DNA from: an uncultured delta proteobacterium
GTDB lineage: Bacteria; Desulfobacterota; Desulfobacteria; Desulfobacterales; UBA2156
Length of the DNA: 64,000 bases
NCBI GenBank assembly: GCA_963736855.1
Contig: CAVTQK010000008.1
Location: 71,835-135,834, forward strand
Reading direction: 5' to 3'
The notes under the pieces are model-generated. The model did not search any database and was not told where the DNA came from. It was given only the letters and a program-made list of their open reading frames with translations. This document shows, one piece after another, positions 14,747 to 34,840 of this stretch (the first letter of the stretch is position 1; every line of letters begins with the position of its first letter). The position numbers were made by a program, and so were the translations under genes.

Positions 14747-16339
14747 ATGGCCAATGGGAAGGAATGGAAAATCGTTTTTATCGACGATGAAGAGGATATT
14801 CGGCAAGTGATGCAATTGACGCTGGAGGACGCCGGATATCAGGTATTTCCTGCACCGGACGGTAGAACAGGCCTGCAATTGTGCCGTGAGGTGCTCCCAC
14901 AGATTGTGATCACCGACATCCGCATGCCGGGGATGGACGGCCTCCAGGTCCTCGAAGCCCTCAAAACAGAATCTCCCGACATCGAGGTGATCGTTGCAAC
15001 CGCCTTTGGAGAAATGAACCTTGCCATTAAAGCGCTTCAACTGGATGCTTCTGATTTTATTACTAAACCAATCGGCGACGAGGCCTTACGTCTTGCCTTG
15101 AAGCGCGCCAAAGAGCGCCATCTTTCCAGAAAGCAGGTCAGAGATTACACTGCTATTTTAGAAAAGGAGAACGCCAAAACCAGCCAGGAGCTTTTTAAAA
15201 GCCTGGCATTCCAGAGGAATTTAATTGAAAATTCGATGGACGGCATCCTTGGCTCGGATGAAAACGAAATCGTCGTTATTTATAACCACAGCCTTGAGGG
15301 AACGCTTGGTTTTTTAAAGGAAAAAGTCCTTCATAAAATGACACTAAAACAATTCTTCCCGGCAGAAAAATTCGAAGACTTCAAAAAGAACCTGTTCAGC
15401 AGCGCTTACGGGGGCGAAAATCGACTCATGCTTTATGAAACCAATCTGATCGAAAAATCCGGTCGCGAAATACCGGTTCAGGTTTCCGCCAGCCTGCTTT
15501 CGGATCAGGGTCAAGACAAAGGACTGGTCTGTTTTTTCAGGGACCTTCGTCAGATCCGCAAACTCGAACAGGAGTTTTCCGATCAGGCGCGGATTCTGCA
15601 TCAGGACAAGATGATGTCTCTGGGACGGCTGGCGGCCAGCGTTGTTCACGAAATCAATAATCCATTGTCCGGAATCTTGAACTACCTCAGGCTGATGAAC
15701 CGAATTTTGAGTCAAGGCCCCTTGTCGGAAGAGCGGCAAAATAAATTTCAACGCTATGTGGAATTGATTGAAAAGGAAACCGATCGGTGTTCCCAAATCG
15801 TTTCAGGTCTGCTGAGTTTTTCACGTCGCTCCCCCCCCTCTTTCGGAGAGGTCCGGATGGAAAAAGTCCTTCGTCTCTGTATTCTTCTCAGCAAACATAA
15901 GCTCGAATTGAGCAATATCCGTCTTGAAATCGATATCGAGTCTGATCTGCCGCCTTTAAACGGAGATTTCAATCAGCTCCAGCAGTGCATGATCAATCTC
16001 ATTTTCAATGCCGTGGATGCCATGCAGGACGGCGGGATATTGACGCTTAAGAGCTTTCTTAACAGGAGCAACCGCAAGGTCGTTGTCACCTTCCGTGATA
16101 CGGGTCAAGGAATTCCTCCGGAAAATCTTCCCCATATTTTTGAACCTTTTTTTACCACCAAGAAAGAAGGTTATGGAACCGGACTGGGTCTTTCCACCGT
16201 TTACGGGATAATCGAGCGGCATCAGGGAACAATCGGCGTCGAAAGTCATGTTGGAAAGGGGACCATCTTCACCATCGAACTGCCGGCTTCCGGTTCGAAT
16301 CCTGAGGATGGGAAAAACCGTTTCATTCAACAGGGCTGA
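14747..16339 (+). CDS. Hybrid REC-PAS-histidine kinase
   Basis: IDDE/TDIRMP receiver, PAS, H-box [23 protein letters not shown]. Confidence 0.9.
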   Translation: MANGKEWKIVFIDDEEDIRQVMQLTLEDAGYQVFPAPDGRTGLQLCREVLPQIVITDIRMPGMDGLQVLEALKTESPDIEVIVATAFGEMNLAIKALQLDASDFITKPIGDEALRLALKRAKERHLSRKQVRDYTAILEKENAKTSQELFKSLAFQRNLIENSMDGILGSDENEIVVIYNHSLEGTLGFLKEKVLHKMTLKQFFPAEKFEDFKKNLFSSAYGGENRLMLYETNLIEKSGREIPVQVSASLLSDQGQDKGLVCFFRDLRQIRKLEQEFSDQARILHQDKMMSLGRLAASVVHEINNPLSGILNYLRLMNRILSQGPLSEERQNKFQRYVELIEKETDRCSQIVSGLLSFSRRSPPSFGEVRMEKVLRLCILLSKHKLELSNIRLEIDIESDLPPLNGDFNQLQQCMINLIFNAVDAMQDGGILTLKSFLNRSNRKVVVTFRDTGQGIPPENLPHIFEPFFTTKKEGYGTGLGLSTVYGIIERHQGTIGVESHVGKGTIFTIELPASGSNPEDGKNRFIQQG

Positions 16340-16389
16340 GCCGGAACGCGGCATCGGATTCATGGGCCAAAACCAAGGAAGCAGCCTCC

Positions 16390-18129
16390 ATGAGTAGAAC
16401 ACACAAAAATCCCGGAAGCATGGTATCGTCCGAGGCGTGGTTGGAGATCATGGACGAATTGAATCTCGGGGCTTTTACTGTCGGCGTCAACCGACAGGTG
16501 ACCTCCATGAACCATACCGCCCAGGCGCTGCTCGGAGTAAAAAACTCGGAGGCCTTGGGCAGAAATTGCAGGGAAGTTTTTATGGGTGTCCCCTGTTTGG
16601 CCAAATGTCCGTTTAGAGGTCCTAACGAACCCGGTACCAGAGAACCCCTCATTCAATTGACAAACGATAATGATATCATCCACTGGACGACACGGATGGC
16701 GACCCCCACTTTCGGTCCCGACGGTAAGGTTGTCGGATGCATGACCATCCTGCAGGATCATTCTCCGATTACGGATCTGATCGATCGCATCCATCACGAA
16801 GAACAGAACACGAAGATCATCCTCGATAACCTGGACGTCGGCATATTCACAGTTGATCGCGGCGGGTATATCACTTTTTTCAATACGGAAGCCGAAAAGA
16901 TCGTCGGCTATAGTCGCCGTGAGGTCTTAGGTCAACCTTTTGCCATGATATTTAAAGACTCGAGGTCCCAGGAAATCGGTTTATTGAACGACACGATTGC
17001 CGATGGGAAAACCCGCAGCAACAGGCGTGGAGAAATGATCACCCGAGACGGTGCCCCCATTCCCGTCCGCATCAATCTGATGGCGCTGATCAACGAAAAA
17101 GGAACGGTCGTCGGGGGGTTGGCCACTTTCCACGATCTCACGTTGGTCCAACAGCTCAAACAAGCCACCCGGCAACATTACACATTCCATGATATGATCG
17201 GTAAAAGCCCTGCGATGGAAAAAATATTTGAAATGGTCAATGTGGTGGCAAAAACCGATGCCACCATTTTGATTGAGGGGGCCACGGGTACCGGGAAGGA
17301 TCTTCTGGCCCGAGTGGTTCATTCCATCAGCCGCAGGGCGGATAAACCCTTTGTCAAGGTCAATTGTGCGGCCATACCGGACAACTTGCTTGAATCGGAA
17401 ATGTTCGGCTATGTCAAAGGGGCCTTTACCGGAGCTGAAAAAGACAAGATCGGACGCTTTCAAGAAGCCGACAACGGAACTATATTCCTGGATGAAATCG
17501 GAGATCTTCCGTTGCCGTTGCAGGCCAAACTGCTTCGGGTATTGGAAGACAAAGAGTTCTATCGATTGGGCAGCCGGCATACGGTCAAAGTCAACGTGCG
17601 CATTATCTCCGCTTCCAATAGGAACTTGCCCCAACTTGTCGAGAAGCGCCTGTTCCGGGAAGACCTTTTTTATCGATTGAACCTGTTTCGCATCGAACTC
17701 CCGGAATTGAAGGATCGCAGGGTGGACCTGCCGTTGCTGATCGGCCATATTTTAAGACACCTGAGTTCCGCCATAGGGATTCGCCCGCCGACAGTCTCCG
17801 AAACAGTGATGGGACTCCTGCTGAACTACAGCTATCCGGGCAACATGCGAGAACTGGAAAATATCCTGGAGCATGCCCTCATTATATGCCGGGAAGAGAC
17901 GATCCAATCGGAACATCTTCCGCAATATCTTCGGTTTTCCCACACCGAGCAGCAGAATGCCTTTCCCGAGAGCCCGAAAAGTGCACCTTTTTCCGAGAAA
18001 AAGGAACGCAGTGAAATTATTTCCATGCTTGAACAATACCACGGGATGCGTTCGGAAGCAGCACGGGCTCTGGGCATCAATCGAACCACATTATGGCGTA
18101 AGATTAAAAAATACGGCATCCGCCCTTAA
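16390..18129 (+). CDS. Sigma54-dependent activator with two PAS domains (no receiver)
   Basis: GATGTGKD, ESEMFGYVKGAFTGA, FLDEIG, PGNMREL, Fis-type HTH. Confidence 0.92.
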   Translation: MSRTHKNPGSMVSSEAWLEIMDELNLGAFTVGVNRQVTSMNHTAQALLGVKNSEALGRNCREVFMGVPCLAKCPFRGPNEPGTREPLIQLTNDNDIIHWTTRMATPTFGPDGKVVGCMTILQDHSPITDLIDRIHHEEQNTKIILDNLDVGIFTVDRGGYITFFNTEAEKIVGYSRREVLGQPFAMIFKDSRSQEIGLLNDTIADGKTRSNRRGEMITRDGAPIPVRINLMALINEKGTVVGGLATFHDLTLVQQLKQATRQHYTFHDMIGKSPAMEKIFEMVNVVAKTDATILIEGATGTGKDLLARVVHSISRRADKPFVKVNCAAIPDNLLESEMFGYVKGAFTGAEKDKIGRFQEADNGTIFLDEIGDLPLPLQAKLLRVLEDKEFYRLGSRHTVKVNVRIISASNRNLPQLVEKRLFREDLFYRLNLFRIELPELKDRRVDLPLLIGHILRHLSSAIGIRPPTVSETVMGLLLNYSYPGNMRELENILEHALIICREETIQSEHLPQYLRFSHTEQQNAFPESPKSAPFSEKKERSEIISMLEQYHGMRSEAARALGINRTTLWRKIKKYGIRP

Positions 18130-18247
18130 TTCAACGTCTGTGTGGTGTTTCATAATATGTTGCATATATGTTGCAAAATAGGGTTTCATAATTAATAACT
18201 TATTAGGATTATTAATTATTCTTTTATCACTCCCTATTCCATTCCCA

Positions 18248-18281
18248 TTCCATATGTTGCAATAATTTGCAACATATGGAA
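18248..18281. promoter_or_regulatory. Perfect 15-bp inverted repeat, putative sigma54 enhancer (UAS)
   Basis: TTCCATATGTTGCAA-TAAT-TTGCAACATATGGAA about 80-110 bp upstream of the -24 box; extra ATATGTTGCA half-sites at 18155 and 18166. Confidence 0.7.
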
Positions 18282-18359
18282 GTTAGTGAAGCTGCCCCCC
18301 TGATCCATTTTTCATTCAACATCCTGTTATCATATCGGAATTTTCCGATATGGGCTTCC

Positions 18360-18375
18360 TGGCACACTCCATGCT
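18360..18375 (+). promoter_or_regulatory. Sigma54 (-24/-12) promoter of the Hdr-like operon
   Basis: TGGCACACTCCATGCT, GG-N10-GC, directly downstream of the activator gene. Confidence 0.8.
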
Positions 18376-18447: not shown

Positions 18448-18897
18448 TTGACCCCCGAGCCGGTGAAGAAAAAGATCCTCGTCGTCGACGATGAGCTGAA
18501 TATGCGCATTTTTCTTTGCAACCTCTTATGCAACCGGGGTTACGAGGCCATCGATGCCGCGGACTGTGTGGAGGGAATGCAGAAAGCAAAAGCGGAAAAA
18601 CCGGCGCTCATCATTCTTGATGTCATGATGCCCAAAGAGAACGGTATTCAGATGTATCGTGAACTCAATGATGATGAGAAGCTTAAACATATTCCGGTGG
18701 TGATGTTGTCGACAATCGATAGAAAGACATTCTCTTATTACCACAAATTCCGAACTGTAACCCAGGAAAAGGGTTTTCTTGCACCAAGTGCCTATCTGGA
18801 AAAACCGTTCGAGGCCGAAACTCTGATCTCGCTGGTAAACCGCATGATATTTTCAGGGAAAGGCCATTTGGCCGATTCCACGGGTGAGTCAACTTAA
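18448..18897 (+). CDS. Single-domain response regulator
   Basis: VVDDE, LDVMMP, EKPF. Confidence 0.85.
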   Translation: MTPEPVKKKILVVDDELNMRIFLCNLLCNRGYEAIDAADCVEGMQKAKAEKPALIILDVMMPKENGIQMYRELNDDEKLKHIPVVMLSTIDRKTFSYYHKFRTVTQEKGFLAPSAYLEKPFEAETLISLVNRMIFSGKGHLADSTGEST

Positions 18898-18971: not shown

Positions 18972-21260
18972 ATGAATGAAAACGTCGATGCCAAACTGTA
19001 TCAAGAGGTGGCCCAATTCGGGGCGATGGACATGGAGGTCTGTATGCAGTGCGGCACCTGTAGCGCATCCTGTCCTCTGTCCAGCGGAAATAATCCGTTT
19101 CCACGAAAGATATATCGATATCTTCAGCTTGGAATGAGGGACAAGCTCCTCAAGTCTTCAGAGCCCTGGCTGTGCTATTACTGCGGAGAGTGCAACAAGG
19201 ATTGCCCCCGGGGTGCCGAGCCGGCCGAGACAATGATGGCAACTCGCCGCTGGTTAACCACTCAGTACGACTGGACCGGACTTGCAAAACGGTTATACAT
19301 CTCCGAAAAGTGGGAATTCGGTGCATTGGGTTTTGTTTCGCTCTTGATCATTTTGCTTTTCACTTTTTTCCATGGACCGATAATCACCGATCGCGTTGCA
19401 GTGAATTCCTTTGCGCCCGTCTTATGGATTGAAATCGGCGATTTGGTCATGGCCGCGATTCTGTCGACATTTCTGCTGTCAAACGCCTTCAGAATGTTTC
19501 GATTTATCATGGATGGCACGAAGGTGCCATTCTGGCTCTATATAACGCAAGCCAAAGCCTTTGTCCTGCATTTTTTAACTCAGAAACGCTGGCGGGAATG
19601 CGGAGAGGACCGGAGCCGATGGTTGAAACACTTTCTCCTAGTCAGCGGTTATTTGACCATGATGTCCCTGATCATTGTTTTCATCCGCTGGTTTCAGGTG
19701 GACGACAGCAGCTGGCATTTTACAAGTCTTTTCGGCTACTATGCTACCGGTGTCCTGCTTTATATTACCGTGGAAATGTTTCGCAGCCGTCGTAAAAAAC
19801 AGGAGACGATTCATCGATACTCCCACCTTTCCGACTGGCTTTTTCTGATTCTTCTGTTTTTCACCACATTAACCGGCATCCTGATGCATCTGATCCGCAT
19901 AGCCGGATGGCCCATGGGAACCTATGTCATGTATGTCATCCATCTTGCCGTGGCAGTCCCCATGCTGGTCATTGAAGTCCCATTCGGCAAATGGTCTCAC
20001 CTCTTCTACAGGCCGCTTGCGGTGTTTCTGGCAACCGTCAAGGAGAAGGCGTCCAAAGAGTCGAGCATCGATGTCGAAGATGTGAAGGCCGAGATCGGCG
20101 AAACCTTCCTGACATGCCTGCAATGCGGCACCTGCACAAGCGTCTGCCCGGTGAACCTGATTTCATCGAACAGCCCCCGCCAGATCCTGCGTCAACTCAC
20201 GATGAAAACCGGCACTGAACAATCCGTCGACCAGGCTGTCTGGAGCTGCGTCACCTGTAACGCCTGCGGGGTCAGCTGTCCACGCGGAATACAGATGATC
20301 GACGTAATGAAGGCGGTCAGAGAACTCAACGTCGCCGCCGGAAAAATCCCCAAGGTTTTCAAGGAGCCTCTAAACAGTCTGAAAGAAAACGGCAATCCTT
20401 GGAACGGGCTGCGCGAAAGACGGATGGAATGGGCGGAAGGTGTCAATCTTCCCGCCTTCAGGCCCGAGCATGCGTATTGCCTTTTCACATGCTGTACCAC
20501 GGCATATGATCCTGCGAATCGCAATGCCGGGAAAGCCCTTCCCCGGCTCCTCGAATACGCGGGTGTTTCTTTCGGCACTCTCGGAATAGAAGAAAACTGC
20601 TGCGGCGACCAGTCCCACAAGATGGGAGCGCAAGCAATCTTCTCTGATCTGGCCCGGAAAAATACCGAGCTTTTTTTACATGCCGACGTCCGAAAGATAC
20701 TGACCGTTTCGCCCCATTGCCTGAACGCCTTTAAAAACCTTTACACCGATTTGAGAGGTTTCGTCGAAATCGAGCACTATTCAGAACTCCTGGACCGGCT
20801 CATCGAGGAGGGCCGGTTGAAACCTCTCCTGGAAGTAGCGTCCACCGTCACCTACCATGATCCGTGCTATCTGGGACGTCACAATAGTATCTACGAGGCG
20901 CCTCGCAGGATTTTGCAAAGCATTCCGGGTCTTAAGCTGGTCGAGATGACAAACAACAGAGAGTGCAGCCTGTGCTGCGGGGGTGGAGGCGGCGGGGCAT
21001 GGATAAATTATCCATCTCGTCATAGCCCCGGCGTCTTGAGGGTCAAAGAGGCTCTGGGAACCGGCGCCGAGATGATTGCCACCGCATGCCCCTTTTGCAT
21101 CCGTATGCTCGATAACGCGATACGGGAACTCGGCGTCGCAAAGGAAATTGCCATCTGTGACCTGGCCGAATTGCTGTTACAGTCGGTTGTAGTGAGGGAT
21201 GAAACAACCGTGATGGGACATATCGATTTGGGCATAAACCGGGAGGTCTGTCATGTCTGA
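18972..21260 (+). CDS. Membrane QmoC-like (HdrC ferredoxin plus heme-b transmembrane domain) fused to an HdrD/GlpC-like 2x[4Fe-4S]+CCG domain
   Basis: CMQCGTCSASCP, CYYCGECNKDCP, hydrophobic helices with His (KWSHLFYRP), then CLQCGTC/CVTCNAC, ENCCG, YHDPCYLGR, LCCGGGGG, TACPFC. Confidence 0.8.
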   Translation: MNENVDAKLYQEVAQFGAMDMEVCMQCGTCSASCPLSSGNNPFPRKIYRYLQLGMRDKLLKSSEPWLCYYCGECNKDCPRGAEPAETMMATRRWLTTQYDWTGLAKRLYISEKWEFGALGFVSLLIILLFTFFHGPIITDRVAVNSFAPVLWIEIGDLVMAAILSTFLLSNAFRMFRFIMDGTKVPFWLYITQAKAFVLHFLTQKRWRECGEDRSRWLKHFLLVSGYLTMMSLIIVFIRWFQVDDSSWHFTSLFGYYATGVLLYITVEMFRSRRKKQETIHRYSHLSDWLFLILLFFTTLTGILMHLIRIAGWPMGTYVMYVIHLAVAVPMLVIEVPFGKWSHLFYRPLAVFLATVKEKASKESSIDVEDVKAEIGETFLTCLQCGTCTSVCPVNLISSNSPRQILRQLTMKTGTEQSVDQAVWSCVTCNACGVSCPRGIQMIDVMKAVRELNVAAGKIPKVFKEPLNSLKENGNPWNGLRERRMEWAEGVNLPAFRPEHAYCLFTCCTTAYDPANRNAGKALPRLLEYAGVSFGTLGIEENCCGDQSHKMGAQAIFSDLARKNTELFLHADVRKILTVSPHCLNAFKNLYTDLRGFVEIEHYSELLDRLIEEGRLKPLLEVASTVTYHDPCYLGRHNSIYEAPRRILQSIPGLKLVEMTNNRECSLCCGGGGGGAWINYPSRHSPGVLRVKEALGTGAEMIATACPFCIRMLDNAIRELGVAKEIAICDLAELLLQSVVVRDETTVMGHIDLGINREVCHV

Positions 21261-24200
21261 ACGCATCGGATTTTATATATGCCACTGCGGCATCAATATC
21301 GCTTACCGGGTCAGGGTTCAGGAAGTGGCCGAGTATGTGGCGAAATTGCCGAATGTGGCAATCTCAAGGGATTACCTTTTCATGTGTTCCGATCCCGGCC
21401 AGGAACTCATTGAAAAAGATATTCGAGAGCATCACCTCACCCGCGTTATCGTGGCTTCCTGTTCTCCGCGGATGCATGAAAAAACCTTCCGGGCAGCTTG
21501 CCAGAGGGCGGGGCTCAACCCTTACCGGGCGTTTCATATGGTATGCGTGCGCGAACATGTTTCGTGGGTCACCGAAAGTGAAGACGAAGCCACCGAAAAG
21601 GCCAAAAATCTGGCCAGAGCCGGTATCTTGCGTGTGGTGCATCAAAGCGATTTAACCCCTGCCACATTCCCGGTATGCACCAATACCCTGATTGTGGGAG
21701 GAGGAATCGCCGGCATGCAGGCAGCCCTTGATGTGGCCAAGGCCGGATTTAAAGCCTATCTGGTTGAACGACAACCCACGATCGGCGGGCACATGCTCCA
21801 GTACGACAAGACCTTCCCCACCCTTGACTGCGCGGCGTGTATCGGCACGCCAAAAATGGTCTCCGTGGGTCAGGAATCCCGGATCCGATTGCTGACTTAC
21901 AGCGAAGTTGAAAACGTCAGCGGCTTCATCGGCAACTTCAAGGTAAGCGTCCGACGAAAAGCCCGCTACGTCGAAACGAATTGCACCGGATGCGGCGAGT
22001 GTGAAAAGGCCTGCCCCATCGATTTTCCCAATCTCTGGGATGTGAACACGAAAACCCGGAAGGCAATCTATCGGCCTTTCCCCCAGGCCGTACCGATCAC
22101 CTACTGCATCGATAAATACGACCGCGCTCCCTGTGTTCAGACCTGCCCGGCCGGAACCAACGTGCAAGGTTACGTCGCGCTGATAAAGGCGGGCAAATAC
22201 CGGGAAGCGTTGAGCCTGATCATGGAACACCTGCCCTTGCCCGGAACCCTGGGCCGCGTCTGCCCGGCACCGTGTGAACACGTCTGTCGCAGATCCGAAG
22301 TGGATGAGGCCGTCGCCATCCGCGATCTGAAGCGATTTGCAGCAGACCAGGTGGATCTTCTGGAATTGCCGCTGCCGGATATCCAAGACCGGCCTGAAAA
22401 AGTGGCCGTGATCGGATCCGGTCCGGCCGGCCTCACGGCGGCGCATTACTTGCGGCTGAAAGGCTACCAGATCACCATTTTTGAGGCACTTCCGGTACTG
22501 GGAGGCATGCTCCGTGTGGGCATCCCCGACTACCGGCTTCCTCCGGAAATCCTGGATCGTGAAATCCAAAACACGCTCCGAATGGGAATCCAGACCCAGA
22601 CGAATCAGAAGTTTGGGGTCGATTTCTGTCTCGACGACCTCAGAAAACAGGGATTTAAAGCTATCTTCCTTGGAATCGGCGCCCACCGCAGCCTGAAGCT
22701 GGGCGTTCACGGCGAGGAAGATTTCCAGGGCGTGATGGATGCGGTCGATTTTCTCAGGGAAGTAAATCTGGGCCGCCGGGAACCTCCCGGCAAACGGGCG
22801 GCGATCATCGGCGGGGGCAATGTGGCCGTCGATGCCGCTCGGGCCGCTTTGAGAACCGGTTGTGGACAAGTGGATATCGTCTATCGTCGCAGCAGAGAGG
22901 AGATGCCCGCTTATCTGGAAGAAATCGAAGGAGCCCTCGCCGAGGGTGTGAAAATCCATTTTCTGACAGCGCCGATCTCGATCCGGGGGGAAGGCGGCAG
23001 GGTCGTCGGGTTGGAATGCATCCGGACCGAATTGGGCCCCCCTGATGAAAGCGGGCGGCGGCGTCCTGTACCGGTGAAGGGTTCCGAGTTTATTATCGAA
23101 TCCGATGCGATCATACCTGCCATCGGGCAGCAACCCGACTTTGACTGGCCGGTGGAAAAACAGATCGTGGAACTCACGAGGCGCAAGACGATATCGGTGA
23201 ATCCGCAAACCATGCAGACCAGCATTCCTGATGTATTCGGAGGAGGCGATGCGGTAAGCGGGCCTGCAACGGTGATCGAAGCCGTAGCCGCAGGCCGAAA
23301 GGCGGCAGAAGCAATCCATTCCTATATCATGGGAGAAGATATGGAAAGCTACGCCAAAAAAGCTGCCGCCAAGGAACCTCTCGGCCAAAATTGGAGAGAA
23401 ATCTCCAAAACCACCCTTAAAAAAGAGAAAGCCCGGCTGCCGCATCGTGATGCATCCGAAAGCGCCGCCTCTTTTGCAGAAGTGATGTCGGGCTTTGGTG
23501 AGACGCAGGCTCGAGAGGAAGCGGCCCGCTGTGTCAATTGCGGCGGATGCTGTGAATGCAAGCTCTGCGTGAGCGCCTGTGAGGCCAAGGCGGTCAACCA
23601 CTCCATGAAGGATGAGATAGAAGAAATCGAGGTGGGTTCCATCATCGTCGCCACCGGTTTCGATCCTCTCGATCCGACACCGATCCGGCAATATGGATAT
23701 GGTCAGCACGCCAATGTCTTTACCAATCTGGAATTCGAACGGTTGTCGAACGCGACAGGACCGACAAGGGGGAAACTGCTGAAACGGGATACGAAGGATC
23801 GTTTAAGATTCACCGAGCCCCCGAAAAGCGTGGCGATCCTTCACTGTATCGGAAGCCGTGACAAGAACTACCATGAGTACTGTTCGCGCACCTGCTGTAT
23901 GTATGCGCTCAAATATGCCCATCTTATTAAAGACAAGTGCGGACACGATACCGAAGTCTACAATTTTTATATCGACATGCGCTGTTTCGGCAAAGGATAT
24001 GAGGAATTCTACAAGCGCGTCCAGAGCGAAGGGGTGCGGATGGTCCGCGGCAAAGCCTCCCGGGTAGATGAAAAGGACGGAATGCTGATCGTCACCGCCG
24101 AGGATACGCTTTCCGACAGAATGCTGAAAATCCCCGTGGAGATGGTAATTCTTTGTACCGCGATGGAGGCACGTCCGGATGCAAACGAAGTGGCGCGCGT

Positions 24201-24633
24201 GTTTGGAATCAGCACTGGAAGTGACGGGTTCTTCCAGGAAGAACATCCCAAACTCGAACCGGTTTCCACCCCCACCGCCGGCGTGTTTCTGGCCGGAGCC
24301 TGCCAGGGACCCAAAGATATCCCCGATACGGTTGCCCAGGCCAAAGGAGCCGCTGCCGAAGCCCTCGCGCTTTCCGCTTCCGGAAAAGTATCGGTTTCTC
24401 CGATGGTTTCTTCCATTGATCCCGACATCTGCATCGGATGTCAGATATGCATCGATCTCTGCGCATACACGGCAATCGAGTTCAATCCCTTGAAAGGGAT
24501 CAGCGAAGTAAACGAGGCCGTCTGTAAAGGCTGCGGAAGTTGCGCCGGCTACTGCCCGAGCGGAGCCGCGCAGATCCGGCACTTTACCAGTAAACAGATC
24601 TTTGCGGAAATCGACGGCATCTTGGCCGCATGA
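21253..24633 (+). CDS. HdrA-family flavoprotein with an inserted GltD/NfnB-like NAD(P)H module (HdrL-type)
   Basis: ICHCGINIA, GGGIAG, KTFPTLDC, insert APCVQTCP...GRVCPAPCE...GSGPAG...GGGNVA, CIGSRD...YCSRTCC, C-terminal ferredoxins. Confidence 0.87.
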   Translation: MSERIGFYICHCGINIAYRVRVQEVAEYVAKLPNVAISRDYLFMCSDPGQELIEKDIREHHLTRVIVASCSPRMHEKTFRAACQRAGLNPYRAFHMVCVREHVSWVTESEDEATEKAKNLARAGILRVVHQSDLTPATFPVCTNTLIVGGGIAGMQAALDVAKAGFKAYLVERQPTIGGHMLQYDKTFPTLDCAACIGTPKMVSVGQESRIRLLTYSEVENVSGFIGNFKVSVRRKARYVETNCTGCGECEKACPIDFPNLWDVNTKTRKAIYRPFPQAVPITYCIDKYDRAPCVQTCPAGTNVQGYVALIKAGKYREALSLIMEHLPLPGTLGRVCPAPCEHVCRRSEVDEAVAIRDLKRFAADQVDLLELPLPDIQDRPEKVAVIGSGPAGLTAAHYLRLKGYQITIFEALPVLGGMLRVGIPDYRLPPEILDREIQNTLRMGIQTQTNQKFGVDFCLDDLRKQGFKAIFLGIGAHRSLKLGVHGEEDFQGVMDAVDFLREVNLGRREPPGKRAAIIGGGNVAVDAARAALRTGCGQVDIVYRRSREEMPAYLEEIEGALAEGVKIHFLTAPISIRGEGGRVVGLECIRTELGPPDESGRRRPVPVKGSEFIIESDAIIPAIGQQPDFDWPVEKQIVELTRRKTISVNPQTMQTSIPDVFGGGDAVSGPATVIEAVAAGRKAAEAIHSYIMGEDMESYAKKAAAKEPLGQNWREISKTTLKKEKARLPHRDASESAASFAEVMSGFGETQAREEAARCVNCGGCCECKLCVSACEAKAVNHSMKDEIEEIEVGSIIVATGFDPLDPTPIRQYGYGQHANVFTNLEFERLSNATGPTRGKLLKRDTKDRLRFTEPPKSVAILHCIGSRDKNYHEYCSRTCCMYALKYAHLIKDKCGHDTEVYNFYIDMRCFGKGYEEFYKRVQSEGVRMVRGKASRVDEKDGMLIVTAEDTLSDRMLKIPVEMVILCTAMEARPDANEVARVFGISTGSDGFFQEEHPKLEPVSTPTAGVFLAGACQGPKDIPDTVAQAKGAAAEALALSASGKVSVSPMVSSIDPDICIGCQICIDLCAYTAIEFNPLKGISEVNEAVCKGCGSCAGYCPSGAAQIRHFTSKQIFAEIDGILAA

Positions 24634-24710: not shown

Positions 24711-25133
24711 ATGAGTGAGTTTGAACCGACGATTGTGGCTTTTTTCTGCAACTGGTGTACTTACACAGCCGCGGACCTTGCCGGCACTTCTCGCCTGAGC
24801 TATCCCCATAATATTCGAATCATACGGGTTATGTGTACCGGCATGGTCGATCCCCAGTATATCATTAAAGCGTTTCTGGAGGGGGCGGACGGCGTATTGG
24901 TGAGTGGATGCAATCCAGGGGATTGTCATTACATCAACGGCAATTATAAGGCCCGGAGGCGGATCAAGCTTCTCAAAGAGATTCTACCCCAATTCGGTTT
25001 TGAAAACGAACGGTTGAGATTAACCTGGATCGGTGCCAGCGACGGGGTTCGTCTAGCTGAGATCATCGGGACTTTTGTAACACAAATCAAAGCCCTTGGA
25101 CCGAGTCAGACAAAGCTTAAGATGGCGATTTAA
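24711..25133 (+). CDS. mvhD: MvhD/FlxD-like [2Fe-2S] subunit
   Basis: FFCNWCTYTAADLAG, RVMCTG, GCNPGDCHY. Confidence 0.88.
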   Translation: MSEFEPTIVAFFCNWCTYTAADLAGTSRLSYPHNIRIIRVMCTGMVDPQYIIKAFLEGADGVLVSGCNPGDCHYINGNYKARRRIKLLKEILPQFGFENERLRLTWIGASDGVRLAEIIGTFVTQIKALGPSQTKLKMAI

Positions 25134-25216: not shown

Positions 25217-26359
25217 ATGACCACCATGGCCAAAATCGACCTGAAGGAACAGAATCCTTTGGAAGCCCTGAAGCAGTTCTTCGCAGGAATTCTCAAATTG
25301 AAAGATGTCACGTCTATCCTGGTCCCCCAGCGGCTTCCCACCCGAAACACGATCATGCCGACTCTGGTAACCGATGCCGCCCTGCTGGAAGGCGTTGATC
25401 CCCTTGCGCCGGCCTTCCTGATGAATGCCGCAAGAATCGCTTCCCGGTTGACCCGAAAACCGATGGGCGGAAAAGTGGCGGCGGTGTTGCGCCCCTGCGA
25501 GATACGGGCGTTCATCGAGCTGGTCAAACTGAATCAGGCCCACAGGGAGGAGATTCTTCTCATCAGTACGGATTGCCTGGGCGCATTTCCAAACAAAGAA
25601 TACTTCAAGTTTGCAGCCCAGAACGGAGCAGAAGAAACCCTTCGCTTCTATAAGACCATGCTGGGAGGAAATGCCAGTGAAATGGAAGGATTTCCATTGG
25701 CTCCGGCTTGCAGGGCATGCGAACATCCGGTCTCCGAAAATGCGGACATCCAAATCGGCCTCTACGGCGTCAAGCCCGGCGAATCCATCCTGATCAAGGC
25801 TCAATCCGAAGCCGGGGATGAAATGTTAAAGCAGATGAACCTGTCCGAAACTACTGAACCGACCGGTCGCCAGGCCGCCATTGACACCCTCATCTCCCAA
25901 CGCATCCGTTTCCGAGACGACATGTTCGCCAAAACCCAGGAAGCCATGAATAGCTTCGATAAGATGGGAGCTTATTTTTCAAATTGCGTCAACTGCTACA
26001 ACTGCCGGGTGGCTTGCCCGGTCTGTTATTGCAAGGAATGCGTTTTCGTCACCGACGTATTCAATCATGAACCTTCCCAATATCTTCAATGGGCCGCCCG
26101 AAAAGGGATGATCAAGATGCCCACGGATACCCTGTTTTATCATCTCACCCGACTGGCCCATATGAGTACGGCCTGCGTGGGGTGCGGCCAATGTTCCAAC
26201 GCCTGCCCCAATGACATCCCCGTTATGGAGGTCTTCCGCATGGTGGCCCAGCGCACCCAGCAGGCCTTTGACTATGAAGCCGGGAAGAACCTTGAGGAAA
26301 AGCCGCCTTTATCCATTTTTCTTGCAGATGAGTTTCAAGAGGTTGTGGGTATTTCATAA
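25217..26359 (+). CDS. FdhB/FrhB-like Fe-S protein with C-terminal 4Fe-4S dicluster
   Basis: RPCEIRA, DCLG, ACRAC, CVNCYNCRVACPVCYCKEC, CVGCGQCSNACP. Confidence 0.72.
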   Translation: MTTMAKIDLKEQNPLEALKQFFAGILKLKDVTSILVPQRLPTRNTIMPTLVTDAALLEGVDPLAPAFLMNAARIASRLTRKPMGGKVAAVLRPCEIRAFIELVKLNQAHREEILLISTDCLGAFPNKEYFKFAAQNGAEETLRFYKTMLGGNASEMEGFPLAPACRACEHPVSENADIQIGLYGVKPGESILIKAQSEAGDEMLKQMNLSETTEPTGRQAAIDTLISQRIRFRDDMFAKTQEAMNSFDKMGAYFSNCVNCYNCRVACPVCYCKECVFVTDVFNHEPSQYLQWAARKGMIKMPTDTLFYHLTRLAHMSTACVGCGQCSNACPNDIPVMEVFRMVAQRTQQAFDYEAGKNLEEKPPLSIFLADEFQEVVGIS

Positions 26360-26385
26360 AGCCAAAAAACAAGGGAGATGCAACG

Positions 26386-27706
26386 ATGCCGCAAGAAGCC
26401 ATTCAATTAACCCGGGAAAGACAAAGCCCCTTTATGGACAAAGTGGAAGCGATCCTTCCCGAAGGAGGAAATCTCAATCTGTGTCTGACTTGCGGGGCCT
26501 GTGTTTCGGGGTGTCCGGCCAGCGGTCTGAGCGGAATGGACCCCCGCAAATTCCTGCGCATGGCCGCCTTGGGGATGGATGAAGAAATCCTGAAGAGCAA
26601 CTGGGTCTGGTTTTGCACCTTGTGCCAGCGCTGCATCTATGTATGTCCGATGAAAATCGATATCCCCCAGTTGGTGTATCAGGCCCGTGCGAGCTGGCCC
26701 AGGGAAACCCGTCCCAAAGGGATTCTCGGCTCCTGCGATATGGCGCTGAAAAACGACAGCTGCAGCGCCATGGGAGCCGCTCCCGAAGATTTCGATTTTG
26801 TCGTCAACGATGTGCTGGAGGAATACCGGGAAGCTCAGCCCGAATTCGCCGAAATGGTGGCACCCATTGATAAGGAAGGAGCGGAGTTTTTCCTCAACCA
26901 AAACTCCCGGGAACCCGTGACGGAGCCGGACGAATTGATTCCGTTATGGAAAATCCTCCATACCGTGGGAGCGGATTGGACCTATGGTTCCAAGGGATGG
27001 GGGGGTGAGAACTATTGCATGTTCCTGGCCGACGATAAGTCCTGGGAACACATCACCCGGACGGCTGCAAACCAAACGGACGCTCTGGGATGCAGGGTCT
27101 TTCTCAACACCGAGTGAGGGCATGTCACCTTCTCGGTCCTGGCAGGACTGAAAAAATTTAACATTCCGCACAATTTTGTCGTTAAAAACATCTATGAATA
27201 TTACGCCAAGTGGATCCGCGAGGGAAAACTCAAGGTCAATTCCGATTGGAACAAGGATCTCAAAATTAAATTCACGGTTCAGGATCCCTGCCAAATCGTT
27301 CGGAAAAGCTACGGGGATCCGATAGCGGAAGACCTTCGGTTGGTCGTAACATCCCTCGTAGGGAGAAGAAAACTTTATCGATATGCAGCCGAATCGATCC
27401 AACAATTACTGCTGCGGCGGAGGCGGCGGCTTTCTTCAATCGGGATATAAGGAAGCCCGGCTGGAATACGGCCTACTAAAAGATCGACAAATACAGGAAA
27501 CCGGTGCGACATACTGTATTGCGGGGTGTCATAATTGTCACGCCCAGATTCACGAACTCAGCGAGCACTATGGCGGAGGGTATCAGGTGGTTCACCTGTG
27601 GACCCTGATTTGCCTCTCCCTCGGTATTTTGGGACCCAACGAACGGGAATATCTCGGGGAAGACCTCAAGGAGGTCCTGGTCTTTCATCCGGAATCCGCA
27701 CACTAG
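26386..27706 (+). CDS. HdrD/DsrK-like Fe-S oxidoreductase, probable selenoprotein (UGA at 27115-27117), with a +1 frameshift near 27361
   Basis: Two ferredoxin motifs, then NTE-TGA-GH (ECGH motif); frame stays open to QDPCQ; continues in frame +1 as GEENFIDMQPNRSNNYCCGGGGG...GCHNC. Confidence 0.8.
27133..27151 (+). promoter_or_regulatory. Putative bacterial SECIS hairpin
   Basis: TCGGTCCT-GGC-AGGACTGA stem-loop, G-containing loop about 24 nt after the in-frame UGA. Confidence 0.65.
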
Positions 27707-27782: not shown

Positions 27783-30700
27783 ATGAACAAAAAAATCGGC
27801 ACGGCAATGGTGGTCGGGGCCGGGATCGGTGGAATCCGGGCCGCTCTGGATCTGGCGGAATTCGGATATGGGGTCACCCTGATCGACCGAGCTCCGCACG
27901 TGGGGGGCATCTTGAGCCAGCTCGATTATCAATTTCCCACCGACCGCTGCGGCATGTGTAAAATGCTCCCCCTCGTCGATCGGGACGCATCCTCCCAATA
28001 TTGTCTGCGGAAAGGCTTTTTCCATGAAAATATTCAGGTTCTGCCTTCCACCGAGTTGATCGGGGTGGAGGGGGAGCCGGGGCATTTTCAGGTGACCCTC
28101 AAGCAAAAACCGAGTTGGGTCGATCCTGTCCTGTGTGTGGGATGCGGACTTTGCACGGAAGTTTGTCCGGTGGAAGTTCCGGATGCCTTCAACGCCGGTT
28201 TGTCCAAAAGAAAAGCTATCTATCTTCCGGTTCCCCATGCTATTCCAAATCCCTTTATCATCGATATGGTCGCATGCACCCGGTGCGGAGAGTGTGAGAA
28301 AGTCTGCCCGACCCATGCCATACGCTTATCGGAACAGGATCGTGAAAAGTTCCGTATCCTGGTTGTAGATGACGAACTGATCGTCCGTGATTCTCTCAAG
28401 GAACTCCTTGAAAATGAAGGCTTTTTCGTCAACATGGCCGCTTCCGGTGCAGAGGCGCTGGATCGTTTATCCGAAGCGCCATACCATCTGATGCTCACCG
28501 ACATCAAGATGCCCGGTATGGACGGAGTTGAACTTTTACAAAAAGTTCGGGAAATTTTCCCGGATATAACGGTGATCATGATGACGGCGTATGCAACCGT
28601 CGAAACCGCTGTGGAAGCGATGAAAATCGGAGCCGTCGACTATCTTGTCAAGCCATTTGAACCCGACACACTCATCCCCATGATTCTCAAGAAATACGAG
28701 GATTTTGAAACCGCCGGCGCCGGTCAGATAGAGGTCGGCGCGATCGTTCTCAGCGGCGGCGTCGCTTATTTTGATCCCCGAAGCGGAAAGAACACCCTGG
28801 GATATGGAATTTATCCGAATGTGATGACGAGTATCGAGTTTGAGAGACTATTCAGCGGCAGCGGACCCAGCCAGGGTAGGCTTGTTCGCTTCGATGGAAA
28901 GCCGATCCGGAAGGTGACGTGGCTTCAATGCGTCGGTTCCCGGGATATTCAGATTAACGCCGACTTTTGCTCCAATATCTGCTGCATGTATGCCATCAAA
29001 GAAGCTCTCGTCGCCCAAAGGCAGGCAAACGGAGATCTGGAAGCAACCATCCTGTACATGGACATGCGGACATTCGACAAATCGTTCCAGCGGTACCGGG
29101 ATACTGCCGAGCAGGTCCATGGCATCCGCTTCATCAGAGGCCGCGCGCATTCCGTCACCCAGGATCGCACCAGCGGTGATCTCGTGATCCGTTATGTGGA
29201 TCCAGGCGGTCAAATATATGATGTCGCCCAGGATGCGGTAATCCTTTCCGTCGGCCAGAGGCCGGCCATCGGATCACAGGCATTGGCCGAGCGGCTGGGA
29301 ATTCAGCTCAATCCCTGGGGCTTTTATAAAAATCCGCCTTTCTCCGCCACTCGAACATCTCGGGAAGGAATTTTTGTGGGAGGCTCTTTTTCCGGGCTTA
29401 AGGATATTTCGGATTCGGTGATTCACGCCTCTGCCGCAGCCCTCTCCGCTTCCCGGATTCTTCACACGTCAGGCGGCAGCTTGTCGCCTCAACCAACGCC
29501 AAGCACCGAAATCCGGAATGTGACCAGGGAATTTCCGCGCCTTCTCTTGACCCTTTGCACATGCAAAGGCGCCATCCTTGACGAAACAGTCAAAGCGGCA
29601 CTCAAGACCCATTTCATGTCCAATCCGAATGTGGCCCAAGTGGAGTATGTGGAACAAGCCTGCACTTCTGAAGGATGGACGGGATTGTCGAAGCTCGTAA
29701 AAGATCTGCGCCCGAACCGGGTTCTCATCGGAGCGTGTCTTCCCCAAGGATACACCCGAAAACTCAGGGAACTGAGCATGGAAACAGGGCTCTCTTCCGC
29801 CTTAATGGAAGTGGTCGATATCGGATCGCCGATATTTTGTGCCAACGATGCTCCGAAGAGAAAAGTATGAGCCCACATTGAAACGGATCCTCGAAACCGG
29901 CATCGCCATTCTCAAAGGCGCCGATCCCACCCCGACGGCGTCGACCCGCATCCAGCAGAGTGCGCTGGTGATCGGCGGTGGAATCGCCGGCATGACCGCA
30001 GCCCTTGCCGTCGCCGATCATGGCTATCCCGTGGATCTGGTAGAACAGGATGCACAGCTCGGCGGAAATCTTCGTTGGATCAAAAAAACCATCGAAGGAT
30101 ACGATACCCATTCGCTGTTGGAGGAAACAATTTCCCGTGTGGAAAAGCATCCGAATATCCGTGTGCACACCGAGTCCCATGTCTTAGAGGCCTTTGGACA
30201 TGCAGGAAGTTTTGTGACTAACATTGAAAACGGCGCGAAGGAGATCACAACGATCACGCACGGCGTTGCGATCCTCGCCACCGGTGGAACTGAAGCTCGA
30301 ACCCAATCCTATGGCTACGGCACATCCGAAATCATCGTGACGCAGAAGGAGTTGGAACTCAAGCTTCACGAAAACCGTATAGACGCTGCAAAATTAAAAT
30401 CAGTGGTGATGATTCAATGCGTCGATTCGAGGGAAGAACCCCGTAACTACTGCAGCCGCGTCTGCTGTGTATCGGCGCTGAAAAACGCGCTCTATCTTAA
30501 GGAAAAGAATCCGACCTGCAAAATCACCATTCTCTATAGGGATCTGATGGCCTACGGCTTCTCCGAAACCTATTATACTCAGGCTCGACGCGCCGACATC
30601 CTCTTCATTCAGTATGACCTGAAAACCAAACCCGCCGTCGTTTCGATGGATGACGGCATCCGAGTCAACGCCCACGAGCCGATTCTCGATCGCCCAATTC

Positions 30701-31200
30701 AAATAGAAGCGGACCTGATCGTTCTGGCGACCGGCATTGTGCCGACGCTCCCGGTGCCCCTCGCTCAGGCTTTCGGGGCCCCGATCGATCCGGACGGCTT
30801 TTTCCAGGAAGCGGAATCGAAATGGCGGCCGGTCGATTCCCTCAAAGAAGGGGTTTTTGCCTGCGGTATCGCCCATTCTCCCCGATCAATCACCGAATCC
30901 ATCGTAACTGCGGAAGCGGCCGCCCAGCGTTCCCTCCGGATCCTGAATCAGAAGAGTATCCCAACAAGCAAGGTGACCGCCATCGTCCGTCATAGCCTCT
31001 GCAGCCTTTGCGAGCGATGCATCGAGGCCTGCCCATACGGCGCTAGAACCCTCGATCTGGATCAAACCCAGGTGCAGGTCAATTCCCTGATGTGCCAGGG
31101 TTGCGGGACGTGTGTTTCGACCTGCCCGAACGGAGCTTCGGTATTGGAGGGATTCCGAAAACAACAGATGTTCGAGGTCATCGATGCGGCGCTCATTTGA
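27783..31200 (+). CDS. Tandem HdrA-like flavoprotein with an internal response-regulator receiver domain; split by a +1 frameshift near 29830-29870
   Basis: GAGIGG...QFPTDRCGMC, ferredoxins, REC (VDDE, TDIKMP, MTAY, KPF), CVGSRD...CSNICC; second ORF 29839-31200 has GGGIAG, CVDSR...CSRVCC and ferredoxins. Confidence 0.8.
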
Positions 31201-31371: not shown

Positions 31372-33682
31372 ATGTTGACACGACTGAAAAGCATCCGTCA
31401 TAGGCTTGCGGCAAAGCTGATCGTGATGCTGGGAGCAGTCTTCCTCGCAACCTTCACCCTCTGGTCGCACTACAGTCTCAACTACCAGAAAAAGCGATTG
31501 ATGGATTACCATATTGAAAGTGCGGATCGGCTGGCCAATACCATCAAGCTGGGAGCCCACTACTCGATGATGTTCAACAACCGGGAGGAGATCAACCAAA
31601 TTATCAAGAACATCTCCACCCTGCCTGATTTCGAATCAATCCGCATCTATACCAAGAACGGGCAAATCAAGTTTTCCAAAAATCCTTCCGAAATTGACCA
31701 GACCACCAATATCAAGAACGAGGCCTGCATCATCTGCCACAGAAGCGATCCCCCTTCGACGCATCTGGAACTGCCCGAAAGGACACGGGTGTTCGATTCA
31801 GGGAAAGGATATCGCCTTCTTGGGGTCATTAACCCGATTTACAACGAACCGATCTGTGCTGCGGCCGATTGTCACGTTCATTCGGAAAAAGAAAAACTAT
31901 TGGGTGCCATGGATGTGGTGGTTTCGTTGAAAAAAACGGATGAGGAAATTCTGCGTACGGAAAACTATTTTATCGGCCTGGCAAGCTTTGGTTTTTCTCT
32001 TCATTTCCGCTATCAGTTTTCTGTTTATTTTAAGGTTTGTCGCTCGTCCCATCAAGAAACTGATAGACGGCGCCAGACGGATCGGCAAGGGGGAATACAC
32101 CGGAACCATTGAAATCAAACAGATCGATGAAATGAGCGAGCTTGCCAGTGCCTTCAACCATATGGCCAGGGAAATCCTCAAGCATGAAACCGATCTGAAA
32201 ACCAAACGACAAGAATATCAGAACCTGTTCGAAAGCGTTCCGTGCCTGATCACGGTGCAGGATAGAAATTTTAAACTGGTCAACTATAACCGGGAATTCG
32301 CCGACATGTTCAATCCCGAACCCGGTGACTACTGCTATCGGGCCTACAAAGGGCGCAATGAAAAATGCGACGTCTGCCCGGTGGAGCAGTCGTTTCAAGA
32401 TGGTCAACTCCATCACGCGGAAGAGACGGGAATTGGAAAAGACGGAAAAGTCATGCACTGGATCGTCAGAGCATCCCCTATCATGAACGATAAGGGAGAA
32501 ATCATCGCCGCGATGGAGATTTCTCTGGACATCACCGAGAGAAGAAACCTGGAGGTTGAACTTGTCAAGTCGGAAGAAAAATATCATGCTATTTTCAACA
32601 ACATCCCCAACCCGGTGTTTGTTCTGGACGAGGAAAACTTTGAAATCCTGGATGCCAATAAGAGTGTCGAGGCCGTATACGGTTACGAAACTCACGAACT
32701 GATACATAGACCGTTTTTGATTCTGTTTCAGGAAAAGGAGAGGGCTCAATATGCCTTCAAACTGCTCGTCTCCAACGTTTTGGACCGGGTCAGGCATCTC
32801 CACAAATCCGGGAAGACCCTCTATGTGAACATCCGCGTTTCTCCCTCCGAGATATCCGGGAAAAAAGTCTTCCTGGTTACCACCAGCGACGTCACCAAGA
32901 GGCTTGAAGCCGAGCAGCAGCTCATTCACGCAGGGAAAATGGCGACCCTGGGTGAAATGGCCACAGGAATCGCCCACGAGCTCAACCAGCCGCTTTCGGT
33001 GATCAAAACCGTCAGCAGCTTTTTTATCGACAAAATCCGGAAAAAAGAGCCGATCGGCGATGATATTCTCTCCACCTTGCTGATCAAGGTGGACAGCAAT
33101 GTGGACCGGGCATCCCGGATCATCAATCACATGCGCCAATTCGCCCGGAAGTCGGAAATCGAGCTGGAATGGGCTCATGTCAACGAAGTCATTGAAAATG
33201 CCCTGGAGATATTCAGCCAGCAGCTTAAGGTCAAGGGGATTGAAATCGTCTGTCGACTCGATCCTGATTTGCCGAAAATTCACGCAGACCCCGGACGATT
33301 GGAGCAGGTGATGATCAATCTCCTGGTCAACGCCCGCGATGCCATCGAAGAAAAGTGGAATATCCGTGGGCGAAGGCAGGAAAAGGATAATATCGAATTG
33401 ATTTCCCGTCGGGAGAAAGGTTGGGTCATTGTGGAGGTGCGCGATAGCGGCAGCGGAATACCGGAACATCTTCTTGAAAAAATATTCGAACCCTTTTTCA
33501 CCACCAAGGAAGTGGGAAAAGGGACAGGTCTCGGTCTTTCCATCAGTTACGGTATCATTACGGAATGCGGAGGGAAAATCGAAGCCGTGAATATCGACGG
33601 AAACGGAGCCTGCTTCATCATGCGGTTCCCCGTTTCGAAGGCTTCCCAATCGGAAATTCCTCCAACACCAACGGGTGTTTAA
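31372..33682 (+). CDS. Membrane sensor histidine kinase (periplasmic heme-c motifs, HAMP, 2 PAS); +1 frameshift near 31985-31992
   Basis: TM1, CIICH and CAAADCH, TM2/HAMP (PIKKL...[13 protein letters not shown]) in the next frame, [20 protein letters not shown]. Confidence 0.8.
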
Positions 33683-33694
33683 AGGATTTATCCC

Positions 33695-34840
33695 GTGACC
33701 CAGGCAGAAGAAAAAACGAGAATACTGCTCGTCGACGATGAAGAAGACATCCGAATCGTTTTGAGCATTGCACTGTCCAGCTCCGGATACGACGTTCTTA
33801 CCGCAAAAGACGGAAATGAGGCGCTCCATGTTTTTGCGGAAACGCATCCACCCATCGTCCTGACCGATATCAAGATGCCCGGCATGATCGACGGCATCGA
33901 ATTGCTTCAGCGAATCAAACGGGAAAACCCGGACGCCGAAGTCGTCATGATCACCGGGCACGGCGACATGGATCTGGCCATTCAAAGCCTGAAAAACGAG
34001 GCGACGGACTTCATCACCAAGCCCATCAATGTGGATGCCCTCAAGGTTTCCTTGAAACGGGTAGAAGAAAAGATCCTCATGAAGAAACAGCTCCGGGAGT
34101 ATACCCAAAAGCTTGAGACCATGATCTTCGAAAAGATGGAGCTTCGGGACCGCCTCTCGTCCCTGGGGTTGATGATCGGATCCATATCCCACGGTATGAA
34201 AGGGCTATTGACCAATATGGATGCCGGTTTATATCTGCTCGATTCCGGCATTTCCAAGAAAAAACCGGATAGATTACAGGAGGGTCTGGAAACGGTCCGG
34301 CAAACCGTCGATCGAATTAAAAAACTGGTCCTGGATATCCTGTTTTACGCCAAAGAAAGAGAGCTGAAAGTCCGATCCGTGAGCATCCATCAGTTTGCGG
34401 AGGATGTAGCAAAGGTGATCGAAAATAAAATCAAGGGGAGCTCCATCGAACTGATCCGCAAGTTCGAGGGGGCACCGAAGGAATTTATGATCGATCCCGA
34501 TTTTTTCCGCACCGCACTGATCAACATCCTTGAAAACGCCGTGGATACCTGTATGGAAGACACAACAAAGCCGGTCCATCAGATCACCTTTGAAATCGAC
34601 GAAAAAGAAGGGGGGTTGGTTGCCAACATCCAGGATAACGGCACAGGGATGGACAATGAAACATTGGAAAAAGCGTTTGATCTATTTTTCTCAACCAAGG
34701 GAACCAAAGGGACCGGCTTCGGGCTCTTCATCACGGACAATATCATCAAGCAACACGGCGGGACCATCAGTGTCAAATCCGCAAAGGGAAAAGGAACTCA
34801 ATTTTGTATCAAAATTCCTTATCCAAATCCGGAACCATGA
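33695..34840 (+). CDS. Hybrid REC-histidine kinase
   Basis: VDDEE, TDIKMP, SISHGMKGLL, DNGTG, FFSTKG, GTGFGL. Confidence 0.88.
   Translation: MTQAEEKTRILLVDDEEDIRIVLSIALSSSGYDVLTAKDGNEALHVFAETHPPIVLTDIKMPGMIDGIELLQRIKRENPDAEVVMITGHGDMDLAIQSLKNEATDFITKPINVDALKVSLKRVEEKILMKKQLREYTQKLETMIFEKMELRDRLSSLGLMIGSISHGMKGLLTNMDAGLYLLDSGISKKKPDRLQEGLETVRQTVDRIKKLVLDILFYAKERELKVRSVSIHQFAEDVAKVIENKIKGSSIELIRKFEGAPKEFMIDPDFFRTALINILENAVDTCMEDTTKPVHQITFEIDEKEGGLVANIQDNGTGMDNETLEKAFDLFFSTKGTKGTGFGLFITDNIIKQHGGTISVKSAKGKGTQFCIKIPYPNPEP

Follow-up and report, generated by a model that had tools for sequence, protein, structure and literature searches.

The window analysed here is a stretch of 64,000 nucleotides from an uncultured delta proteobacterium of the Desulfobacterales (lineage UBA2156; assembly GCA_963736855.1, contig CAVTQK010000008.1, forward strand positions 71,835 to 135,834), and within its positions 14747..34840 lie 11 genes, all on the + strand, that encode an Hdr-type electron transfer system together with kinases, receivers and a sigma54 activator (Table 1). 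The feature that sets this locus apart is a receiver (REC) domain embedded in the flavoprotein HdrA (REC-HdrA), a candidate point of post-translational control of the enzyme. Open reading frame (ORF) lists and profile scans with Pfam and NCBIfam returned the domain set and gene order that a preliminary description of the locus had proposed for all 11 genes. The same description reported no hydrogenase, FdhA, apr, dsr or hdrB genes and none was seen among the window ORFs scanned. Elsewhere in the genome holding the window (designated G000, with other G numbers for compared genomes and L numbers for fetched loci) we found dsrA, aprA, a NiFeSe hydrogenase, molybdopterin enzymes and HdrB-sized CCG ORFs, and by its dsrA and aprA genes the source organism is a sulfate reducer.

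Table 1 Genes and regulatory features of the locus, with positions in the window. A dot marks an unassigned strand
Feature	Position	Strand	Basis and remarks
REC-PAS-HisKA-HATPase hybrid kinase	14747..16339	+	Pfam; predicted cognate kinase of the HdrA receiver
PAS-PAS sigma54 activator without receiver	16390..18129	+	ORF and Pfam; PAS1 C60-x8-C69-x3-C73, E62
Putative enhancer, TGTTGCA repeats at 18158 and palindrome TGTTGCA-N6-TGCAACA at 18255-18274	18158..18274	.	Conserved pattern
Candidate sigma54 -24/-12 promoter site	18360..18375	+	Pattern match and conservation
Lone receiver, first gene behind the promoter	18448..18897	+	Top NCBIfam match DVU0259 family, below cut-off
QmoC-like part (2x[4Fe-4S], ~5 transmembrane helices, conserved His) fused to HdrD-like part (2x[4Fe-4S] and 2 CCG)	18972..21260	+	
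HdrL (type III HdrA) with inserted GltD/NfnA-like module, NADP-type GGGNVA and YRR motifs	21253..24633	+	
MvhD/FlpD [2Fe-2S] adaptor	24711..25133	+	Pfam
FdhB/ElpB-like polyferredoxin	25217..26359	+	Pfam; FrhB N-terminal Pfam domain not matched
Selenocysteine HdrD (Sec-HdrD; TmcB/HmcF-like), UGA at 27115, hairpin like a selenocysteine insertion sequence, surplus base ~27360	26386..27706	+	
Type II (two-FAD) HdrA with internal receiver ~28350-28709, phospho-Asp codon 28500-28502, surplus base ~29857	27783..31200	+	
Membrane kinase with periplasmic CxxCH sensor, HAMP, Cys-rich PAS (C-x10-C-x2-C), PAS and HisKA, surplus base ~31984	31372..33682	+	
REC-HisKA-HATPase hybrid (REC-kinase), Gly/Ser in place of acidic residue after phospho-His	33695..34840	+	Pfam

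The Sec-HdrD, REC-HdrA and membrane (heme) kinase genes each carry one surplus base that splits them in the window, and these bases are probably assembly errors because they are absent from a near-identical contig and from congeners: a contig of run X1 that is ~99% alike lacks all three, runs X2-X4 lack part of them and the relative G005 (92% identical DNA) has none. Three breaks within 18 kb of the window could also be read as decay of the operon in this genome, with the frameshifts having inactivated HdrD, REC-HdrA and the kinase, but the X1 contig largely refutes this, and aprA is split as well in this sulfate reducer, one of five frameshifted genes among 77 tested beyond the locus (~8 of these tests were self-queries, incapable of revealing a shift). 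A pseudogenised operon was thus rejected as extremely improbable and the intact G005 proteins stood in for the three split genes.

Relation to the HdrABC/HdrL cluster

We surveyed 50 REC-HdrA loci in stretches of up to ~20-30 kb, in which absences are provisional, and excluded L038 as a probable duplicate and L041 as truncated. The neighbours of REC-HdrA were an FdhB-like protein in 46 loci, MvhD in 43, HdrL in 40, HdrC in 36 and HdrB in 35 (one HdrB coming from an adjoining operon), with hdrL-mvhD-fdhB-hdrA-hdrC-hdrB as the usual gene order, which equals that of Sfum_0824-0819 in Syntrophobacter fumaroxidans. In the excerpted text of PMC5947623 this HdrABC/HdrL cluster (Sfum_0819-0824) was detected by proteomics only with sulfate and confurcation was proposed for it, and HdrL was defined in Desulfobacterium autotrophicum HRM2 (PMC2702500, in excerpt). 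Like this cluster and the HRM2 HdrL loci, the window brings together HdrL with an NAD(P)H-binding insert, MvhD without MvhA, an FdhB-like iron-sulfur (Fe-S) protein without FdhA, and HdrA. Unlike the HdrABC/HdrL cluster it lacks both hdrC and hdrB and has QmoC-HdrD and Sec-HdrD instead. In excerpt, both of these published descriptions mention neither a receiver in HdrA nor regulators. By gene content and order the core is therefore not new but the known HdrABC/HdrL cluster, and the window is a variant and not a plain member of it. The expected co-conservation of core and regulators across relatives was supported by the synteny of the 50 loci and by the genome co-occurrence given below. The proposed complex linking NAD(P)H, ferredoxin, quinone and thiol-disulfide pools would apply to this variant only, since the quinone and Sec-HdrD arms are lineage-specific (a QmoC part in 9/50 and Sec-HdrD in 13/50 loci, against the 36/50 with HdrC).

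Some further genes recur inside or beside the locus in relatives, namely a GcvH-domain protein, an M54 peptidase and a kinase/REC-sigma54 pair (L019:10143-11721, L027:4717-6542, L113:15743-17284). At L031:11010-13196 (G019) REC-HdrA stops at 728 aa, with neither hdrCB nor the membrane kinase seen nearby, possibly a decaying copy.

At this locus the QmoC-HdrD fusion likely replaces HdrCB because none of the nine QmoC-bearing receiver loci contains hdrC; three receiver-less sister operons (L123, L124, L131) carry both. The Fe-S Cys and several membrane His of the fusion are invariant in 11/11 rows, and the closest solved chain to its HdrD half is 9OJN, which we take to be mycobacterial EtfD. QmoABC of sulfate reducers consists of HdrA-like flavoproteins and a QmoC-like heme b membrane subunit, and the window resembles it in pairing an HdrA-like flavoprotein with a QmoC-like membrane subunit. 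A true QmoABC was nevertheless rejected, as QmoC is not stand-alone here but fused to an HdrD/EtfD-like domain, scores 236 bits against the NCBIfam cut-off of 300 for the qmoC model and is not linked to aprAB (aprA lies on contig C15).

The insert of HdrL resembles NfnA, NfnB and GltD and carries GGGNVA (GXGXXA) and YRR (YRRS in the window), the same motif being present in 13/13 orthologues among those listed. This differs from archaeal type III HdrA, where the GltD insert has GXGXXG, the NAD type (PMC12054007, in excerpt), and the NADP-type motif suggests NADP(H) as the partner of HdrL. REC-HdrA itself falls into type II, which in the excerpted archaeal survey (PMC12054007) has two thioredoxin-reductase domains keeping K409/E356 and genes adjoining mvhD and fdhB. 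It shares the two flavin domains and the equivalents of both residues, with K406 and E354 invariant, K900 in 116/117 and E858 in 97/117 aligned rows (P0001 plus 116 of 120 listed matches, four near-identical or partial matches being omitted). By sequence and by fold, HdrA and the FdhB-like subunit came closest to the methanogen complexes HdrABC-MvhAGD, Fdh-Hdr and Elp-Hdr (PDB 5ODC, 7BKB, 8RVU/8RVY), in contrast to which the locus has no hydrogenase or FdhA subunit.

Sec-HdrD bears the marks of a bacterial selenoprotein, namely UGA at a Cys-homologous site, a downstream hairpin and a tRNA-SeC gene in the genome. The in-frame TGA (27115-27117) is found at the equivalent position in 20/20 distinct orthologous contexts, and a hairpin of 7-9 bp with compensatory changes lies just 3' of it in 18/20.

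The receiver domain of HdrA and its candidate kinases

The receiver is inserted right behind the two-cluster ferredoxin, before the chain re-enters the first flavin adenine dinucleotide (FAD) domain, and an AlphaFold model of REC-HdrA (predicted local distance difference test, pLDDT, 83.8; predicted template modelling score, pTM, 0.85) gives the receiver a beta/alpha fold, predicted well and lying between the ferredoxin and what remains of the FAD domain. Its phospho-acceptor set is complete (acidic pair, phospho-Asp, Thr/Ser, Lys), with D196, D197, D240, T268 and K290 invariant in 117/117 rows, and its conservation of 0.835 compares with 0.61-0.80 for most enzyme domains (0.895 for the first FAD stretch). 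With these residues intact the earlier suggestion that the receiver within HdrA is a kinase target appears plausible on sequence grounds. In two distant copies (L121, L122) the Asp is still present but the acidic pocket and Thr are gone, and the genomes that carry them hold no REC-PAS kinase orthologue (best expect value, E, ~1e-47).

REC-HdrA was found in 98/201 genomes of the same order, in 10/400 phylum-wide genomes when five candidates were scored per genome, and in the cultured Desulfonema magnum. In a tree of 48 receiver-bearing and 16 receiver-less rows (three broken rows were left out) all 48 stand apart from the 16, at a node with support of 0.199 that re-rooting has possibly displaced, which suggests a single origin of the HdrA receiver. 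Structure searches found no solved chain or structure that joins HdrA and a receiver, and 'response regulator' occurs nowhere in the excerpted archaeal HdrA survey (PMC12054007). No description of a receiver in HdrA was met in the literature searched, which left out subscription journals and supplements where one may be in print.

The HdrA receiver is of the NtrC type and groups with Usp-REC-Usp and NtrC-type/REC-sigma54 receivers. As these go with the same kinase type phosphate competition is possible, and the receiver might then be an input or sink (a phosphate sink or kinase tether) that couples the state of the enzyme into the kinase network, with the true output elsewhere. The receiver-less sister operons, which have free lone receivers and kinases instead, would agree with this. 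On the other side all 117 rows keep the T-A-Y signalling motif and K-P-F unchanged, presumably more than a sink requires, and a DNA-binding response regulator of that receiver type is missing from most loci, and we consider a sink unlikely. Usp-REC-Usp proteins whose receiver is 62-71% identical to that of HdrA lie beside a REC-PAS-type kinase at L039:15166-16485 and L118:17473-18786.

Taking the receiver of HdrA as a phosphorylation target, we compared its candidate kinases by co-occurrence over the one set of 201 same-order genomes. The REC-PAS kinase was found in 90/98 REC-HdrA genomes and 11/103 others (phi 0.81), the heme kinase in 86/98 and 26/103 (phi 0.63) and, with paralogues counted, the REC-kinase in 93/98 and 45/103 (phi 0.55) and the activator in 72/98 and 18/103 (phi 0.56). 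As a guide, interface residues were compared in 58 pairs of neighbouring kinases and regulators, drawn from G000 and from the fetched loci, at positions picked from two-component specificity work and with rho taken over 51 non-focal pairs. The seven regulators closest to the HdrA receiver at these positions all adjoin kinases with a REC-PAS-type DHp domain, and among the top 12 nine adjoin the REC-PAS type, two the REC-kinase type and none the heme-kinase type, one being undecided. Correlation of the HdrA receiver interface was highest for the REC-PAS kinase (rho 0.41), followed by the REC-kinase (0.29) and the heme kinase (0.07). Because interface residues and co-occurrence agree, the upstream REC-PAS kinase is likely the HdrA kinase and not the heme kinase.

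Direct phosphorylation of the HdrA receiver by the downstream heme/Cys-PAS membrane kinase, as a simple two-component pair, would be in line with its position within 15 kb on the same contig in 67/98 REC-HdrA genomes and with retention of the kinase body despite loss of the heme sensor in 8/34 ORFs. However its DHp interface (NQSVTVSF) is unlike that of kinases adjoining HdrA-type receivers, the kinase occurs in 26 genomes without REC-HdrA, a paralogue lies at a Tmc-like operon, and L039, L118 and L136 keep REC-HdrA and a REC-PAS-type kinase with no heme kinase in the stretch; such a pair seems to us distinctly unlikely. The Cys-rich PAS is kept in 34/34 ORFs. As the heme sensor can be lost and a paralogous pair serves the Tmc-like operon, the membrane kinase would by these comparisons be a more general upstream sensor. 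That second heme-kinase and REC-kinase pair (L133:8875-19264, G000:C15) lies ahead of an operon for a TmcC/TmcB-like membrane complex, and further along come a lone receiver and one more kinase.

The two hybrid kinases share a single receiver signature, consistent with a common donor, although the comparison of pairs does not single out the membrane kinase as that donor, and the lone receiver correlates with the REC-kinase type (rho 0.55). The Gly/Ser after the phospho-His of the REC-kinase is present in all orthologues listed and the ATP boxes are intact. By the rule on the residue that follows the phospho-His (H+1) this protein may be a phosphotransferase or phosphatase instead of an autokinase.

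Transcriptional control

The -24/-12 site is the sole match to TGGCAC-N6-TGCW in the window, a pattern that is weak by itself with at least one occurrence in 15/100 shuffles. The sigma54 promoter and enhancer of the preliminary description gain support from conservation, the TGGCAY-N6-TGC form being present in 12/17 upstream regions of relatives and the TGTTGC enhancer pattern in 14/17, and in the window TGTTGCA elements lie ~105 and ~200 bp upstream of the -24/-12 site. The enhancer pattern is missing in L116, L117 and G029, loci that are also without the PAS activator in the fetched stretch. The two elements of the locus are the only matches in G000 at up to one mismatch, where a shuffled genome gives four, and the palindrome occurs nowhere else; a wider enhancer regulon at this threshold was rejected. 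Scans for sigma70 promoters and terminators stayed at chance level.

The Cys triad of PAS1 in the activator is found in 17/18 homologous ORFs, the sole exception being split in G005, and the acidic residue at +2 in 13/17. In G005 (L013:16157-18444) the activator gene is broken by an insertion of ~550 bp. The excerpted report on OrpR of Desulfovibrio vulgaris describes C52/C61/C65 with D/E54 and sensing of redox potential via a [4Fe-4S] cluster (PMC8359166). Like OrpR, the protein in the window belongs to the sigma54 activators, has a PAS Cys triad with x8 and x3 spacing and an acidic +2 residue, and is encoded beside its regulon. It differs in having two PAS domains, in its TGTTGCA palindrome as against the OrpR site GGGCGYRTTTTGCGCCC and in its target, a redox enzyme operon, and by target it is not an OrpR orthologue, though by analogy OrpR-like in its working. 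The excerpted paper on the D. vulgaris sigma54 regulome (PMC4641369) holds no occurrence of 'hdr'.

Because it carries the OrpR-type Cys triad the activator likely senses redox by itself with no receiver needed. Transcription need not depend on the kinases, and the lack of a receiver in the activator is accounted for without them. The kinases could still act on transcription through a lone receiver that binds the activator, leaving the HdrA receiver secondary; in 24/50 loci the gene that comes first after the sigma54 promoter is that of the lone receiver, and the activator gene lies 50 bp behind that of the REC-PAS kinase. Against such a route stand the activator's own sensor and its co-occurrence with REC-HdrA, which is less tight than that of the REC-PAS kinase (0.56 vs 0.81), and we regard it as very improbable.

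Proposed mechanism and neighbouring genes

The locus is real and conserved and, judged by its genes, encodes a membrane-linked form of the known HdrABC/HdrL; what sets it apart is the receiver embedded in HdrA and the likely dual control, which were found nowhere in the literature searched. We somewhat favour a model in which an HdrABC/HdrL-type flavin/Fe-S complex, with QmoC-HdrD in place of HdrCB and a receiver in HdrA, is under dual control by an Fe-S redox-sensing sigma54 activator and by phosphorylation of HdrA. In this model the GltD module of HdrL would trade electrons with NADP(H), and MvhD and the FdhB-like polyferredoxin would wire them to the two-FAD HdrA, in which the bifurcation Lys/Glu are kept. 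One branch would lead to ferredoxin via the inserted ferredoxin domain and the second would end at menaquinone through the QmoC part or at a DsrC-type disulfide through the HdrD parts. The PAS [4Fe-4S] cluster of the activator would permit transcription at low redox potential in the manner of OrpR. The membrane kinase would feed the receivers of both hybrid kinases, the weakest step; the REC-PAS kinase would phosphorylate the Asp of the HdrA receiver, and the receiver, which adjoins the ferredoxin arm, would on phosphorylation gate ferredoxin exchange. The REC-kinase type would be paired with the lone receiver. More tentatively, and with rather less than even confidence, we suggest that several kinases form a private cascade with the REC-PAS kinase as its last member, that Asp phosphorylation by this route turns a bifurcating HdrA on or off, and that about half of the order's sulfate reducers control bifurcation post-translationally in this way, alongside an Fe-S redox sensor on transcription.

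Several observations weigh against this interpretation. The 117 rows are the best matches to the receiver-bearing region, which biases their invariance upward, and kin genomes are non-independent so that phi and rho are overstated. The REC-PAS kinase is unmatched in 8/98 and the activator in 26/98 REC-HdrA genomes, and two of the top 12 training regulators adjoin the REC-kinase-type DHp (rho 0.29). For the receivers within the hybrids the correlation is with the REC-kinase type and not with the heme kinase, which makes the upper tier of the cascade tentative, and the heme-kinase/REC-kinase pair also serves the Tmc-like operon, without REC-HdrA, in G000. The existence of receiver-less sister operons makes the receiver dispensable for catalysis, and across the genome the enhancer shows no enrichment, with 2 matches where 4 are expected.

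HdrA-type flavoproteins determine how electrons are split between ferredoxin and higher-potential acceptors in anaerobes, and if the receiver gates the ferredoxin arm a sizeable fraction of the sulfate reducers in sediments could adjust bifurcation within seconds, given the 98/201 same-order genomes with REC-HdrA. The predicted kinase-receiver pair is small and soluble and so directly testable, with D. magnum as a cultured carrier.

Upstream of the locus (window 2928-14118) lies an acyl-CoA degradation cluster with genes for acyl-CoA dehydrogenase, 3-hydroxyacyl-CoA dehydrogenase, thiolase, an IcmF-like B12 mutase-MeaB fusion, TetR, enoyl-CoA hydratase, an HMG-CoA-lyase-like protein and GntR, of which the last three keep this adjacency only in G002 and G004, and the tie to the Hdr locus looks genus-level. 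Directly downstream are leuBDC-like genes on the minus strand (34913-37768). A eukaryote-like signalling cluster follows at 44573-49694 and 57833-58738 (Ser/Thr kinase, PP2C phosphatase, FHA proteins, a trypsin-FHA fusion and a cyclase-FHA protein), and an IS66 tnpB remnant is found near 61 kb (59534-61183).

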